Made by a program: the position numbers and the translations under genes. A stretch of DNA of 64,000 nucleotides. Source: Escherichia coli. GTDB taxonomy: Bacteria > Pseudomonadota > Gammaproteobacteria > Enterobacterales > Enterobacteriaceae. Position 1 is the first letter of the stretch; every line of letters starts with the position of its first letter. Shown here piece by piece: positions 3,729 through 37,453 of this stretch. The DNA is taken from assembly GCF_029227855.1 (NCBI RefSeq), contig NZ_CP074356.1, one strand, 5' to 3'. The notes below the pieces were generated by a model. The model was not told the origin of the DNA. It did no database searches and saw only the letters and a program-made list of their open reading frames with translations.

Positions 3729-3920
3729 TTATCCTTTTGGTTCAATACCGCGCCGTAGCAGCTCTTTGCGCCCTAATTCTTTAAGCCAGTTGGCTAGGCT
3801 TATGCCGTCGCTCTGCGCTTCTTTGTCGAATTGCTCTTTTAGCTCTGGAGAAATTCGCATTCTGAATTGTGGAGATTGCCCATCACCCTTAGGACTTTTA
3901 TCGCGTTTGATCGTTGACAA
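3729..3920 (-). CDS. Arc/MetJ-type ribbon-helix-helix DNA-binding protein (candidate satellite repressor)
   Basis: C-terminal part ...PQFRMRISPELKEQFDKEAQSDGISLANWLKELGRKEL resembles Arc repressor; start uncertain (TTG at 3920 with AGGTGG upstream, or ATG further in; ORF track gives 3729-4043); divergent from the + strand operon that starts at 4060. Confidence 0.55.
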   Translation of the reverse strand: MSTIKRDKSPKGDGQSPQFRMRISPELKEQFDKEAQSDGISLANWLKELGRKELLRRGIEPKG

Positions 3921-4059
3921 GTGACCACCTATTGAATTAGCCTTTTCATTGTTAGGTGACCACCTTAACACGGGGGCACTTAAAAAAGCAAAGCCCGAAG
4001 GTGCTGGGAACACCAACGGGCTTCTAACCACCAACGATAGCAACAGTATCGAGGTAGCT

Positions 4060-20912: not shown

Positions 20913-20972
20913 TGCAAAATATTTCATGTGAAACCGCCTCCGGGCGGTTTTGTCGTTTATGGAGTATGACGA

Positions 20973-23900
20973 ATGGGCAAAGGAAGCAGTAAGGGGCATA
21001 CCCCGCGCGAAGCGAAGGACAACCTGAAGTCCACGCAACTGCTGAGTGTGATTGATGCCATCAGCGAAGGGCCGATTGAAGGTCCGGTGGATGGATTAAA
21101 AAGCGTGCTGCTGAACAGTACGCCAGTGCTGGACACTGAGGGGAATACCAACATCTCCGGCGTCACGGTGGTGTTCCGGGCCGGTGAGCAGGAGCAGACA
21201 CCGCCGGAGGGATTTGAATCCTCCGGCTCCGAGACGGTGCTGGGTACGGAAGTGAAATACGACACGCCGATCACCCGGACCATCACGTCGGCAAACATTG
21301 ACCGACTGCGTTTTACCTTCGGCGTGCAGGCACTGGTGGAAACCACCTCAAAGGGGGACAGGAATCCGTCGGAAGTCCGCCTGCTGGTTCAGATACAACG
21401 TAACGGTGGCTGGGTGACGGAAAAAGACATCACCATTAAAGGCAAAACCACCTCACAGTATCTGGCCTCGGTGGTGGTGGGTAACCTGCCGCCGCGCCCG
21501 TTCAATATCCGGATGCGCAGGATGACGCCGGACAGCACCACAGACCAACTGCAGAACAAAACGCTCTGGTCGTCATACACCGAAATCATCGATGTGAAAC
21601 AGTGCTACCCGAACACGGCACTGGTTGGCGTGCAGGTGGACTCGGAGCAGTTCGGCAGCCAGCAGGTGAGCCGTAATTATCATCTTCGCGGGCGCATTCT
21701 GCAGGTGCCGTCGAACTATAACCCGCAGACGCGGCAATACAGCGGTATCTGGGACGGAACGTTAAAACCGGCATACAGCAACAACATGGCCTGGTGTCTG
21801 TGGGATATGCTGACCCATCCGCGCTACGGCATGGGGAAACGTCTTGGTGCGGCGGATGTGGATAAATGGGCGCTGTATGTCATCGGCCAGAATTGCGACC
21901 AGTCAGTGCCGGACGGCTTTGGCGGCACGGAGCCACGCATCACCTGTAATGCATACCTGGCCACACAGCGCAAGGCGTGGGATGTGCTCAGTGATTTCTG
22001 CTCGGCGATGCGCTGTATGCCGGTATGGAACGGGCAGACGCTGACGTTCGTGCAGGACCGACCGTCCGATAAGGTGTGGACCTATAACCGCAGTAATGTG
22101 GTGATGCCGGATGATGGCGCGCCGTTCCGCTACAGCTTCAGCGCCCTGAAGGACCGCCATAATGCCGTTGAGGTGAACTGGATTGACCCGGATAACGGCT
22201 GGGAGACGGCGACAGAGCTTGTGGAGGACACGCAGGCCATTGCCCGTTACGGTCGTAACGTCACGAAAATGGATGCTTTTGGCTGTACCAGCCGGGGGCA
22301 GGCACACCGCGCCGGGCTGTGGCTGATTAAAACGGAGCTGCTGGAAACGCAGACCGTGGACTTCAGCGTGGGCGCAGAAGGGCTGCGCCATGTACCGGGT
22401 GATGTTATTGAAATCTGCGATGATGACTATGCGGGGATCAGCATTGGCGGGCGCGTGCTGGCGGTGAACAGCCAGACCCGGACGCTGACGCTCGACCGTG
22501 AAATCACGCTGCCATCCTCCGGTACCACGCTGATAAGCCTGGTTGACGGAAGTGGCAATCCGGTCAGCGTGGAGGTTCAGTCCGTCACCGACGGCGTGAA
22601 GGTAAAAGTGAGCCGTGTTCCTGACGGCGTTGCCGGATACAGCGTATGGGGGCTGAAGCTGCCGACGCTGCGCCAGCGCCTGTTCCGCTGCGTGAGTATC
22701 CGTGAGAACGACGACGGCACGTATGCCATCACCGCCGTGCAGCATGTGCCGGAAAAAGAGGCCATCGTGGATAACGGGGCGCACTTTGACGGCGAACAGA
22801 GTGGCACGGTGAATGGTGTCACGCCGCCAGCGGTGCAGCACCTGACCGCAGAAGTCACTGCAGACAGCGGGGAATATCAGGTGCTGGCGCGATGGGACAC
22901 ACCGAAGGTGGTGAAGGGCGTGAGCTTCCTGCTCCGTCTGACCGTAACAGCGGACGACGGCAGTGAGCGGCTGGTCAGCACGGCCCGGACGACGGAAACA
23001 ACATACCGCTTCAGGCAGCTGGCGCTGGGGAACTACAGGCTGACAGTCCGGGCAGTAAATGCCTGGGGGCAGCAGGGAGACCCGGCGTCGGTATCGTTCC
23101 GGATTGCCGCACCGGCAGCGCCGTCACAGATTGAGCTGACTCCGGGCTATTTTCAGATAACCGCCACGCCGCATCTTGCGGTTTATGATCCGACGGTACA
23201 GTTTGAGTTCTGGTTCTCGGAAAAGCGGATTGCGGATATCAGGCAGGTTGAAACCACAGCACGCTATCTTGGCACGGCGCTGTACTGGATAGCCGCCAGT
23301 ATCAATATCAAACCGGGCCATGATTATTATTTTTACATCCGCAGTGTGAACACCGTTGGCAAATCGGCATTTGTGGAGGCTGTTGGCCAGCCGAGTGATG
23401 ATGCATCCGGCTATCTGAATTTTTTCAAAGGAGAGATAGGGAAAACCCATCTGGCTCAGGAGCTGTGGACGCAGATTGATAACGGTCAGCTTGCGCCTGA
23501 CCTGGCGGAAATCAGAACGTCCATCACGGATGTCAGTAATGAAATCACGCAGACCGTCAATAAGAAACTGGAAGACCAGAGTGCGGCAATCCAGCAGATA
23601 CAGAAGGTTCAGGTTGATACAAATAATAACCTGAACAGCATGTGGGCTGTGAAGCTGCAGCAGATGCAGGACGGACGCCTTTATATCGCGGGTATTGGTG
23701 CCGGTATTGAGAATACCCCTGACGGTATGCAGAGTCAGGTGCTGCTGGCGGCGGACAGGATTGCGATGATTAATCCTGCGAATGGCAACACAAAACCGAT
23801 GTTTGTTGGTCAGGGCGATCAGATATTCATGAACGAAGTGTTCCTGAAATATCTGACGGCTCCCACCATTACCAGCGGCGGTAATCCTCCGGCATTTTCC

Positions 23901-29459: not shown

Positions 29460-30791
29460 TTATTTTGAGTGAATTATCACCTTGTTTTTTCCGGTTCTTT
29501 TGGCTTGATATAACGCTTTGTCGGCATTGACTAACATTTCAGATGGACTGAGATTATTCTCTTTTGAAGCAAAGCAACCAATACTGACAGTTATTTTCTC
29601 AGGTCCATGCGATAATAATTTTTCCGAGCATTGCTCTTCAATGTTTTTTCTGATTCGCTCTGCAATTGATAGCAAGAGTTTTTGAGTATTACCTTTAATG
29701 ATAATACCGAACTCCTCACCGCCTAAGCGCCCTAATATATCCTCTTTCCTGATGGATTTTTTTATTATTCTGGTAACCATTACTATGACTTGATCACCCA
29801 TATGATGCCCCCATTTGTCATTGATGCTTTTGAAACTGTCAATATCTAACATTATTACTGAGAAATCATGGTGTTTTGATATATTCTTCAATGAGTCAAT
29901 AAAGTATCTTCTATTGTATGTATTCGTTAGTGGATCATGAATTGCCATATGATTAGCATGATTTAATTTCCTGAAAACATAATACATGAGTGTTGAAATG
30001 ATATAAATCATTGATATCAATTCAAGAAATTTTGTCATGTACCATGCAGGATGGGATTTATCAATAAAATACAATAAAATTAGATTATTGCATACTGACA
30101 CTATACTAATAAGTATTATACACAACCATATTTTTGAGTAATTACGTATGCTGATGCATGAGCTGATAAGTAATACAAGCCAAAATACTGATATTATTTT
30201 GGTGTACACGATATTCCACGTCGACAAATGACGATTCAGCGAGTATTGTATAATATTAAGACTATATTTTATATGGTCACTGCTTAGATTTTTTGCTACA
30301 AACGGAGTAATAAAAAGAATTAATATTGACAAAACAACAATTATTATGTTTCTTTTATCTTCTAAAATACTTTTATTTTTAACATTGGTGGAATAAACAG
30401 CCAGAAAGATTATAGATATAAAGCTGAACTGACGGAATAGATAATATATTGCGATATCATTTGATTTCTGATAGATTGTAGATAAATCGTTACCTAACGG
30501 AGATAAAGAAATAATAGCCACTTCTAATAAATAATACGTGTTGCTCAAAAACGCGAATGAAAGAATTAAGAGATAACTTTGTCTCTGATTAGAAACATAG
30601 TAAAGCAATAGAAAAATAAAAATCATCAGGTTTATGAAAAAAAGCCCAATAATGAAAACACTATAACTTATTTGTGTTGTTTGTGTTATGTATATTCCAT
30701 TATTTTCATGCAGTAACAAAAATATAATAGAGATGCATGAAAATAAAAAGATGAAGATTTTTATTTTTATAGGTACCTGGTTGATAATCAT
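29460..30791 (-). CDS. membrane-anchored GGDEF-domain protein (putative diguanylate cyclase), prophage cargo
   Basis: 443-aa product; multi-helix hydrophobic N-terminal part and C-terminal GGDEF domain with RLGGEEF motif; strongly AT-rich. Confidence 0.75.
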   Translation of the reverse strand: MIINQVPIKIKIFIFLFSCISIIFLLLHENNGIYITQTTQISYSVFIIGLFFINLMIFIFLLLYYVSNQRQSYLLILSFAFLSNTYYLLEVAIISLSPLGNDLSTIYQKSNDIAIYYLFRQFSFISIIFLAVYSTNVKNKSILEDKRNIIIVVLSILILFITPFVAKNLSSDHIKYSLNIIQYSLNRHLSTWNIVYTKIISVFWLVLLISSCISIRNYSKIWLCIILISIVSVCNNLILLYFIDKSHPAWYMTKFLELISMIYIISTLMYYVFRKLNHANHMAIHDPLTNTYNRRYFIDSLKNISKHHDFSVIMLDIDSFKSINDKWGHHMGDQVIVMVTRIIKKSIRKEDILGRLGGEEFGIIIKGNTQKLLLSIAERIRKNIEEQCSEKLLSHGPEKITVSIGCFASKENNLSPSEMLVNADKALYQAKRTGKNKVIIHSK

Positions 30792-31040
30792 GTACGCACC
30801 TGAGAATGATATATATATAATATGTATCGCTACAAATAACGATAATTTCTTACTGGTGATAGTATACTATTATTCTGGTTAATCGCTGTCAAATTGATGA
30901 TTTTGGTTAGTATTGCAATAGCGAAGGGTTTGATCCGGTAAGACTGGCTAGGCAAGGCTATACCAAAAAATCAGTGTAGGTTCAGAAAACGATGCACCAT
31001 ACAATCATCAATAATTTCAAATTGTCCATTGTGCATAAAT

Positions 31041-31084
31041 CATAAAGAAAACCGCAGCACGTCGTATGCAAGAACGTGCTGCGG
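31041..31084 (-). terminator. orphan rho-independent terminator-like hairpin (minus strand)
   Basis: CCGCAGCACG...CGTGCTGCGG stem followed on the minus strand by TTTTCTTTAT; no minus-strand ORF upstream of it. Confidence 0.4.
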
Positions 31085-31383
31085 TTGGCTGGTGAGCTTT
31101 CGATAGTGCGAGTATTGAATGATTTCCAGACGTTACCGATTTTATATAACTGCAGTGGAATTATTCAACACACAGGCAAAACGGAATAAGCTGAGAAAAA
31201 AGCGTGCTTTCCCAATCTGGGGCAAATCACGTCTGAATGACACCTGAAAACAGGTGGTAGCCTCAAGAAGGCTTGGAATATTCTTCTTTAATGTTATGTA
31301 ATTCATTGATTTTTCTTGTACGATTTTAAGACATTTATTCCAAGAAAAATTTTTAACTCTTTGATTTTTCGACTCTGTATCAT

Positions 31384-31445
31384 CGGTCTCGAAAACCGGA
31401 GTAGGGGCAACTCTACCGGGGGTTCAAATCCCCCTCTCTCCGCCA
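31384..31445 (+). tRNA. 3' fragment of a tRNA-Ser gene (anticodon arm to CCA end; 5' part missing), likely prophage att remnant
   Basis: CGGTCTCGAAAACCGGAGTAGGGGCAACTCTACCGGGGGTTCAAATCCCCCTCTCTCCGCCA matches the 3' part of E. coli tRNA-Ser (CGA anticodon, serU-like) from memory; no matching 5' acceptor strand upstream. Confidence 0.7.
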
Positions 31446-32114
31446 CTTTATCAATGACTTATCTCCCGACTTCCCGCCTTGCTTTTCCTAAACAGAACAA
31501 TCGTAGAATATTCTTGAAGGGTTAGATCGTCACTGTTTTCTGTTCGATACTGTGACATTCAGCACTTGATTCGCTATGGATCTGACAGGAAGGTTTCGAG
31601 CGAAAATCTGCAATTATTCAGTCGTTTTCTTATCGGTCACCATTATTCTTTTAGACATTGATCCTACAAAGCTGCCGCAAAGTTGGTGGTGGGAACTGAA
31701 GTTGCGTAGAGAAGGGGGCAATAATTGAGCAAAAAAAGGAACGCGGCCGTCAGATTAAAGCCGCGGGACAAAGTCCATAATTTCCAAGAGTTGTTGAATT
31801 TCCCAGCTTTTTTGAAAGCCTTTGTATCATACTAACAAGTAAAAAAGGTTTAAATACCAAAATTAACCTATATTTCTGGTTAGCTTTACCATGACAGATG
31901 ACTTGCTCCTGGAGACATTGGCGCAGCCAGTCTGTATTGGTGAGTTGTGTATTTATTGTTCGCCGTTTTCTCAGTTTTTTTCTACAGACGTAATAAAAAA
32001 GACACGTCTCAAGCATGAGCGTGTCTGAGTTTGTCTTATTTATTTGTCTTGGTAAATTATTGTCGTTACTACCAGGCACTGTTCTGTTAAATAATTGAAG
32101 TCAGCGCAAAAAAA

Positions 32115-32765
32115 TCAATGAAACATCATCTCCTCGACCACTTCTTCGCTACTCAACTGATAGGGATAATACGTTGGCCAGTTTTCCATTTCATTTAATA
32201 AAGATTGTTGTGAATCATTACCCATAAAAATGTGAAAATGAGATGATTTTCGTGGTGCATTTATATGATCGCTAAATTGAATATATTTAGGGGCTTTGCT
32301 TTCAGGATCTTTACATTCGAATAAGTAACGAACACCTTTCTTGCCTGATTTATAGGTGAGTATTTTGTATCCATCGTAATCATATTTACAGGATGTTGTT
32401 TCATTATTTCTATGGAATTCAACAATGCCGTCCTCAATGCCAATCATCTCGATATCTGTCACATAACCTTTGCGATAATAATCTTTAATTTCAGCAAATG
32501 TTTTGGTTTTATCTGCATCCGCTTTTTTCTGAAAGACGGGGTCAAGTTTGCCACTTTGCAGTAAAGGATAAACGGATTGCCAGACTCCATCCCAGTCACT
32601 GAGCATTCGATTTTGTACATTGGCATCATCAAAAACACCATTAGCAGCTTTTTGTTCGATCTCTGTTAAAGGTTTGCCGTGTGAGTGATGACCATGCGAA
32701 AAGGCAGGAGCGCTAACAATAAAGACGCCTAAAGCAACAGCCAGTTTATGAAGACGAATCGCCAA
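32115..32765 (-). CDS. zinT: zinc/cadmium-binding periplasmic protein ZinT
   Basis: 216-aa product with signal peptide and His-rich HGHHSHG motif; matches E. coli ZinT (YodA). Confidence 0.9.
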
Positions 32766-37346: not shown

Positions 37347-37453
37347 CATAGGGCTTCAGTACGCCATAAATTAACCGTGAAAAAACGCAGCCACGTCGTG
37401 AGTACTAACGCAGCTGCGATTGATTATGCGCTTACATTCAAACGTAACAGGGA

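Follow-up and report, generated by a model that had tools for sequence, protein, structure and literature searches.

An orphan-looking hairpin at an Escherichia coli prophage end as the probable terminator of a 96-nt boundary block of lambdoid phages, with a relic at yedL

The 64,000-nt stretch of Escherichia coli DNA analysed here (hereafter the window; contig NZ_CP074356.1, assembly GCF_029227855.1) contains, at 31041-31084, a hairpin that looks like a minus-strand transcription terminator although no gene stands upstream of it, and that shares a conserved core with the hairpin following yedL. This raised the question of what such a hairpin could be ending, and why it resembles that of yedL. 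A first-pass annotation of the sequence had offered the 3' end of an unannotated minus-strand small RNA (sRNA) or the relic of a gene lost at a prophage junction. Our analysis showed that the two hairpins are repeated beyond chance and are of an unremarkable sort: a terminator/boundary block carried by phages, and a relic of it. We consider it probable (roughly 0.7) that the first hairpin (copy 1) forms the terminator end of a non-coding block of 96 nt that serves Escherichia lambdoid phages as a standard boundary between the tail-fibre/cargo genes and the leftward integration side, and that the hairpin at yedL (copy 2) is a relic of this block. The parts concerned are the following.

31040 to 31049, minus strand: U-rich terminator tail, reading UUUUCUUUAUGA, including two U of the outer stem.
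31050 to 31086, minus strand: copy 1 hairpin, with a 12-bp stem AACCGCAGCACG / CGTGCTGCGGTT and the 13-nt loop TCGTATGCAAGAA (given for the plus strand); proposed intrinsic terminator of leftward transcription.
31087 to 31145, minus strand: 59-nt tail of the block, GGCTGGTGAGCTTTCGATAGTGCGAGTATTGAATGATTTCCAGACGTTACCGATTTTAT, upstream of the hairpin in the minus-strand RNA; in relatives, a dinI-like 3' untranslated region (UTR).
63003 to 63065, minus strand: copy 2, a probable 63-nt relic of the block, comprising a left flank of about 25 nt, the hairpin (63026-63060) and a further 5 nt; it stops exactly at the yedL stop codon.
63065 to 63544, minus strand: yedL, an open reading frame (ORF) for a GNAT acetyltransferase, named from the annotation of the E2348/69 orthologue; copy 2 lies just past its stop.

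Read from the sequence, copy 1 has its arms at 31050-31061 and 31075-31086 around a 13-nt loop (31062-31074), and copy 2 has its arms at 63026-63036 and 63050-63060 around a loop at 63037-63049. The core shared by both, written as the degenerate 30-mer GCAGCNCGTCGNATGCAAGAANGTGCTGCG, matched exactly twice in the window and not once in 100 dinucleotide-preserving shuffles of it. Aligned by eye, 31041-31084 and 63016-63059 are identical at 37 of 44 bases, and BLAST aligned the yedL region 63017-63065 with the copy-1 locus of another genome (99.5% identical to that locus in the window) at 83.7% identity over 49 nt; overall, the two copies are about 84% identical across 44-49 nt. A profile built from phage blocks returned only two significant sites in the window, copy 1 (31049-31144; E = 1e-31) and copy 2 (E = 4e-7). 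The claim of paired hairpins with a common core, at the positions first reported, was thereby confirmed. So was that of a terminator-like minus-strand hairpin without an upstream gene: copy 1 folds at -24.5 kcal/mol on the minus strand (z = -5.2) with UUUUCUUUAU directly after the stem, and the minus strand upstream of it holds no ORF longer than 54 amino acids (aa) before zinT, about 1 kb away. The proposed kinship with the yedL terminator stood as far as shared ancestry goes, but a good fold on the yedL strand was not found in the window strain, where copy 2 reaches only -11.1 kcal/mol (z = +0.6) because of C·A mismatches; the orthologous yedL site in E2348/69 pairs better (-14.7 kcal/mol).

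Copy 1 forms the left end of a block of 96 nt (31050-31145). The segment 31037-31144 matched 216 phage records at 88-95% identity, including HK97, HK106, mEp460, HK75, Stx1 and Stx2 phages, VT1-Sakai, PPompW and PPyecE, and the sequence on either side of the block matched other phages or none. Viral contigs, scanned with an anchor on the loop and GGCTGG only, carried the block in at least 120 loci, with 79 distinct variants among the matches listed. From the loop through the ~70 nt that follow it, as far as CCGATTTTAC, the variants align without gaps at 90% identity or more, and their 5' arm co-varies with the 3' arm. The edges of homology are sharp, ~12 nt left of the loop and directly past CCGATTTTAC, and a wide variety of flanks is found on either side. 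A 60-nt query found the block in 5414 of 5426 complete E. coli genomes, at a median of 4 places per genome, and of 100,044 species representatives only those of Escherichia contained an exact 29-mer of it, with the exception of one 3-kb contig of a metagenome-assembled genome. The possibility, raised in the first-pass annotation, of a common intergenic repeat at which no transcript ends was half borne out: this is a repeated, phage-borne element of nearly all E. coli genomes, yet a transcript 3' end has been mapped at its K-12 homologue (see below).

The stem is maintained by covariation. In a set of 40 distinct hairpins, aligned with a one-base bulge placed by hand, 8 of the 12 stem pairs had compensatory double changes and 90.6% of cells were paired; none of 500 column shuffles reached the observed covariation, and slid controls were 24-50% paired. 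Double changes also keep the stem in the K-12 chromosomal copy and in a diverged lambda homologue. The structure of the block is under selection. With respect to strand, T-rich tails after the stem are confined to the minus strand, where about a quarter of the 79 variants among the matches listed have one; a U-rich minus-strand tract follows the stem in copy 1, in the K-12 copy beside ykgJ and in the yedL copy.

In related genomes, the RefSeq annotation pipeline (PGAP) places a 24-codon 'capsid protein' pseudogene fragment over the equivalent of 31073-31144 on the plus strand, and a 'nucleocapsid protein' over a plasmid copy. We rejected a coding reading of this interval, as variants reading GGCTGGTTAAC contain a stop codon and the stem covariation is unlike that of coding sequence; given the in-frame stop in some variants, 'capsid protein' is probably an annotation artefact spread by homology.

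The K-12 chromosome carries a copy that aligns across the whole block. It lies in the 312-bp ykgJ-ecpE spacer, in which a short segment next to ykgJ is followed by the block and then by a frameshifted, DinI-like remnant of ~184 bp, whose last residues (...EWFNH) are encoded just ahead of the block. In MG1655, a minus-strand 3' end at 304212/304213, classed as 'orphan', was recorded by term-seq under three conditions (Adams et al. 2021, PMC7815308). The 61-nt context given for this end is the ykgJ-ecpE hairpin, oriented like the minus strand of the window, and the end falls 4-5 nt past the stem, within UUCUCUUU. Its Rho score of 1.44 ('No') marks it as Rho-independent (PMC7815308). For the yedL copy, no 3' end is listed in the same MG1655 table.

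The position of the block in relatives is equally regular. HK97 has the order tfa, block (20936-21039), annotated sib site (21042-21091), att core and int, and in lambda the diverged homologous hairpin, with a compensatory stem change, lies 17 nt past the tfa stop and converges with ea47. Prophages of the dusA type carry an invertible tail-fibre segment, pin, the block, a minus-strand gene for an 82-aa DinI-family protein, and int beside dusA; this junction was found in 713 genomes, and in one dusA-type locus (L128) the stop codon of the DinI-like gene lies 9 nt from the block end. In IntS/argW-type phages, int lies 72-96 nt beyond the block, and K-12 homology starts ~22 nt past the block and continues into intS, the stretch before intS being read as the 3' end of argW. 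PPompW, from Shiga toxin-producing E. coli, has nleC, the block and dinI, and then an integrated Stx2 phage just beyond, and other contigs have cargo of a defence-like or unidentified type right of the block. Convergent genes are the commonest context (56 of 120 loci among the matches listed). This survey makes the block the constant element where the rightward late (tail-fibre) region meets the leftward dinI/att/int side.

Other roles suggested by these neighbourhoods were rejected. The block is not the attP of the 385-393-aa integrase lying 72-96 nt away, which is IntS, since the K-12 homology starts only past the block; nor is it the attP of a 365-aa integrase, which is of the dusA type and has its att on its far side. 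It is also not the terminator of chromosomal dinI, because K-12 dinI has a different terminator, without the block. Some individual loci may be mentioned here. Between int and the phage dinI-like gene, L128 has two LexA-box-like sites at 3866-3926, TACTGTGTTTGTATACAGTA and AACTGTATGGATAAACAGTG, so that a block-ended transcript would be SOS-induced in such phages. In the viral contig IMGVR_UViG_2737471817_000007 (L024, 1772-3574), two blocks in the same orientation, 1.77 kb apart, flank genes for helix-turn-helix and peptidase-like proteins, with more cargo on either side, an arrangement suggestive of a cassette array assembled at the block. The dusA-type prophage of E. coli PK8217 (L129, 1379-3278) is devoid of the block and has genes for a reverse transcriptase and a SLATT-domain protein, a retron-like defence pair, between tfa and the dinI-like gene.

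Within the window, copy 1 belongs to a lambdoid, serU-integrated prophage with the following features around its right end.

31384 to 31445, plus strand: 3' fragment of the tRNA-Ser gene serU (anticodon CGA, ending in CCA), corresponding to attR; the prophage fills the window from 1 to ~31383.
31190 to 31235, minus strand: weak hairpin with a six-U run, between attR and the block (fold -9.7 kcal/mol, z = -0.3).
31139 to 31168, minus strand: promoter-like site from a consensus scan (TTGAAT, 18-nt spacer, TAAAAT; 9 of 12 matches), with a function that is predicted only.
30892 to 30864, minus strand: promoter-like site of the diguanylate cyclase gene (TTGACA, 17-nt spacer, TAGTAT; 10 of 12 matches).
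29460 to 30791, minus strand: MASE4-GGDEF diguanylate cyclase cargo gene, intact, 443 aa (Pfam GGDEF 3e-44, MASE4 2e-35), immediately downstream of the hairpin.

No intact tRNA gene is present in the window. The copy-1 block lies ~240 nt, and its hairpin ~300 nt, inside attR, beyond which zinT and msrQ follow; left of copy 1 are tail-fibre genes, a tail-fibre assembly remnant and the AT-rich MASE4-GGDEF gene. This prophage has the diguanylate cyclase as cargo in place of effectors and is without dinI. In a genome with a 99.5%-identical junction, the prophage measures ~47.8 kb and has an intact serU and a minus-strand integrase gene at its far left end, which places copy 1 at the prophage end opposite int.

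These data suggest how the hairpin would work and why it looks orphan. Read on the minus strand, the block presents a 59-nt conserved leader, the stem-loop and then, in copy 1, the U tract, and would end leftward transcripts. In the circular phage, int would be transcribed leftward across attP, the transcript meeting the hairpin at 31190-31235, the 59-nt tail and finally the copy-1 hairpin. In many relatives, leftward transcripts would come from an SOS-controlled dinI-like gene that stops 9 nt from the block. Recombination at serU has put int 47 kb away, at the other prophage end, and because int has been moved there by integration, the hairpin has no upstream gene and appears orphan. In the lysogen, the hairpin lies between zinT (minus strand) and the diguanylate cyclase gene, where it could stop read-through from zinT or attR into the prophage; both termination at copy 1 and this insulating role are what we infer. 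The earlier idea of a gene lost at the prophage junction was thus correct in that a conserved phage module lies at the junction and a dinI-like upstream gene is absent from it, and has to be amended in that int is found at the opposite prophage end, separated by integration. Prophage topology together with the shuffling of modules would account for the apparent orphan terminator, and that of yedL would be of phage origin.

A similar arrangement is known from the tI/sib region of lambda, where a minus-strand terminator lies beyond attP as seen from int, follows int in the circular phage and is parted from it in the prophage. However, tI/sib has no sequence homology to the block, and sib in HK97 is separate, immediately right of it; an identification of the hairpin with the sib site was rejected because HK97 annotates sib beside the block, not on it. 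The hairpin at 31190-31235 is possibly the first terminator of the serU-type integration module, but was rejected as a strong tI equivalent, its fold being no better than shuffles. The segment 31189-31384 is common to the phages ev099, PhiR70_1 and mEp332 at 98-99.5%. In ev099 (L126, NC_049953, 3001-3300), mEp332 and PhiR70_1, the b region consists of the equivalent of 31189-31384, the serU 3' fragment and host sequence, so that a former attR with its chromosomal flank was apparently packaged into these genomes. We therefore rejected the ev099 match as evidence for attP, as the phage carries the serU fragment and host flank.

Several observations weigh against the hairpin being a leftward terminator. 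Compared with intrinsic terminators, it has the GC-rich stem, the U-rich minus-strand tail and, in the K-12 homologue, the Rho-independent 3' end 4-5 nt past the stem, but the block differs in its conserved 13-nt loop (textbook loops are ~3-8 nt), its unconserved U tract and a 59-nt leader as conserved as the hairpin. A consensus terminator scan of 30600-32200 called no terminator, on account of the 13-nt loop. As the U tract is not conserved among block variants, termination alone cannot explain the near-invariant loop and 59-nt tail; its cause could be a function of the RNA, service as an att site or recombination that is frequent where modules meet. The bias in wobble pairs towards the minus strand (36 cells that wobble only in the minus-strand RNA vs 17 only in the plus-strand RNA) is no more than suggestive because the counted sequences are related. 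The mapped 3' end belongs to the K-12 copy only, that is, to another strain and another copy. It has an intrinsic terminator score of 2.78 on a scale on which >=3.0 suggests an intrinsic terminator (PMC7815308). Minus-strand counts in the term-seq table are generally high and coverage near 304212 is low, and we therefore do not read the ykgJ-ecpE RNA as abundant.

The strand itself also has to be considered, since the one Rfam family that matches the hairpin does so on the other one: CssrB (RF02799), from Shigella flexneri 301 between SF2021 and SF2022, matched 30988-31083 on the plus strand with 44.1 bits (E = 6e-8), and its 3' stem-loop and ~15 preceding nt are nearly identical to the hairpin. 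Acting on the plus strand, the hairpin would close the late (tail-fibre) operon or form the 3' end of a CssrB-like RNA. This would suit the plus-strand fold (-29.6 kcal/mol), which is stronger than that of the minus strand, the ~180-nt Northern band of CssrB in Shigella (PMC3071730), and the lambda homologue, 17 nt past tfa, whose plus-strand tail is somewhat T-rich. However, the hairpin alone aligns, leaving ~120 model positions unaligned, the score is below the gathering threshold of 76 (the yedL and ykgJ copies score 16.7 and 22.4 bits), and the CssrB 3' end was predicted, not mapped (PMC3071730). Where a T-rich plus-strand tail would be needed, all 79 variants among the matches listed lack it and the conserved GGCTGGTGA is found; the K-12 3' end maps to the opposite strand, and in the window a minus-strand gene stands between the tail-fibre genes and the hairpin. 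We regard a plus-strand role as quite improbable. An sRNA on the minus strand, ~85-95 nt long, made from its own promoter (with the -10 hexamer TAAAAT at the block edge) or by processing of a dinI-like 3' UTR and ending at the hairpin, seems unlikely as well. It would account for the near-invariant 59-nt leader with its covarying terminator hairpin, for a predicted two-hairpin fold of the 3' UTR (z = -3.7), for the promoter-like site at 31139-31168 and for the 'orphan' K-12 end although the upstream ecp operon is poorly expressed. Yet only the -10 hexamer of that site coincides with the block's right edge; its -35 lies outside, in a flank that varies between classes of relatives, the site is present in the window copy alone, and the scanned region around copy 1 held 7 promoter-like sites vs 5.2 expected. 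The first helix (GGCUGG/CCAGCC) does not covary, and Rfam 15 holds no minus-strand family that matches, the 3' hairpin of CssrB being the only hit. Cappable-seq supplements gave no match to a transcription start site at the block in either coordinate system. The prophage sRNA PasB of enteropathogenic E. coli (EPEC) came into view through its distribution and through Rfam hits nearby, but the block does not contain its probe sequence AATCCCGCAGTGATCGCGGAGCT, and PasB was rejected. The interaction tables of the EPEC RIL-seq supplement have no entry for ykgJ, ecpE or yedL, names that turn up only in its tables of expression and annotation. The independent sRNA first proposed is an unlikely candidate. 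It is rather improbable, too, that the block is a functional phage RNA, derived from the dinI 3' UTR or free-standing, with a sequence-specific 13-nt loop, that doubles as an integration target as tRNA and sRNA genes do; if so, nearly all E. coli would express an RNA gene that has been overlooked, the ykgJ-ecpE copy.

The alternative that we take most seriously, at somewhat less than even odds, is that the block is foremost a target of site-specific recombination, its conservation and sharp edges reflecting repeated integration and recombination instead of a role of the RNA, which is compatible with a terminator at its end. A 96-bp att named attB-in-PP_2 has been described at the right end of a lambda-like prophage; it is 78% identical to the ykgJ/ecpE spacer, has homologous flanks of 184 and 29 bp, and in some strains serves as the site where other prophages are integrated (Nakamura et al. 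2021, PLoS Pathog, PMC8112680). The block is very probably this unit, judging from its length of 96 nt, its place at the prophage right end by effector loci and dinI, its ykgJ-ecpE homology, with a short ykgJ-side segment and a ~184-bp dinI-like remnant on the two sides, and the same phage records. PPompW, PPyecE and VT1-Sakai carry the block between an effector gene and dinI, homology stops sharply at both block edges next to many kinds of flank, and tandem copies flank a cargo cassette in L024. On the other hand, the equivalence is drawn from these features and not from a published sequence, the window copy is an unoccupied single full copy with no phage integrated in it, in a serU prophage that has neither dinI nor effector genes, and the integrases beside the block use other sites (dusA, argW, lambda attB). 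Compensatory stem changes are not predicted by recombination alone. The paper treats the site purely as an attachment site copied from the chromosome and mentions no hairpin, covariation, terminator or dinI 3' UTR (PMC8112680). Beyond the literature that we found, attB-in-PP_2 appears to have a structure of its own, as 3' UTR plus terminator of dinI-like phage genes, with a covarying stem, an invariant loop and a mapped 3' end in K-12. Chance or convergence of GC-rich terminators, or a generic repeat of the repetitive extragenic palindromic (REP)/bacterial interspersed mosaic element (BIME) or enterobacterial repetitive intergenic consensus (ERIC) kind, is extremely improbable. Terminator stems are indeed short and GC-rich, and a weaker third look-alike exists at the hchA terminator (37383-37422), but none of the 100 shuffles gave any match, and the identity extends over the 13-nt loop and over a left flank of ~25 nt that one class of phage variants has as well. 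REP and ERIC elements occur in tens to hundreds of copies per genome, unlike the block with its median of ~4 places per genome, mostly in prophages.

The phage boundary block with a terminator end, our preferred reading, also accounts for the surroundings of yedL, where further remains of a prophage are found.

61450 to 62596, no strand assigned: decayed prophage remnant, with an intG integrase fragment (minus strand) beside fliE and yedN at 61793-62596 (plus strand).

When 61500-63600 was compared by BLAST with all fetched phage loci, only 63003-63065 matched (78-89% identity), and no phage homology was found in this interval outside those 63 nt. The ~25-nt left flank of copy 2 is typical of one class of phage variants. 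The remnant has the polarity of the intact copy-1 prophage, with int (minus strand) on the left and the block relic, in plus orientation, on the right. The yedN ORF matches DUF5503; yedN is regarded as an effector-like pseudogene, and the order of effector and block in PPompW matches that of the remnant. E2348/69, where PGAP annotates an integrase fragment at the orthologous place, has kept the hairpin and is without yedN and yedM. In our reading, the yedL terminator is what has survived of the right end of an old, decayed lambdoid prophage (intG-yedM-yedN). As the block marks the right end of decayed prophages both here and at ykgJ-ecpE, it is a handy landmark for prophage ends and cargo slots.

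Some minor observations were made on the neighbourhoods of the copies. In a near-identical prophage (NZ_CP123240), the diguanylate cyclase gene is frameshifted according to RefSeq. The ~670 nt between the serU fragment and zinT (31446-32114) hold no convincing ORF; this interval is occupied by yodB in K-12, and yodB may be missing or decayed in the window strain. In K-12, the yagU-ykgJ spacer beside ykgJ (L004, 3500-3609) matches the Rfam family IS009 with 112 bits vs a gathering threshold of 117, the match being cut at the edge of the search range; this spacer is the reported site of the sRNA EcsR2 (PMC4350180). Finally, in the spacer between the convergent genes hprS and hchA, the hchA terminator has AAACGCAGCCACGTCGT in common with the block consensus, minus one C. 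Its minus-strand RNA folds into a good hairpin with UUUUUU behind it (-20.7 kcal/mol, z = -2.4), and its profile E value is only 0.23; it may be an old relic of the block or a coincidence.

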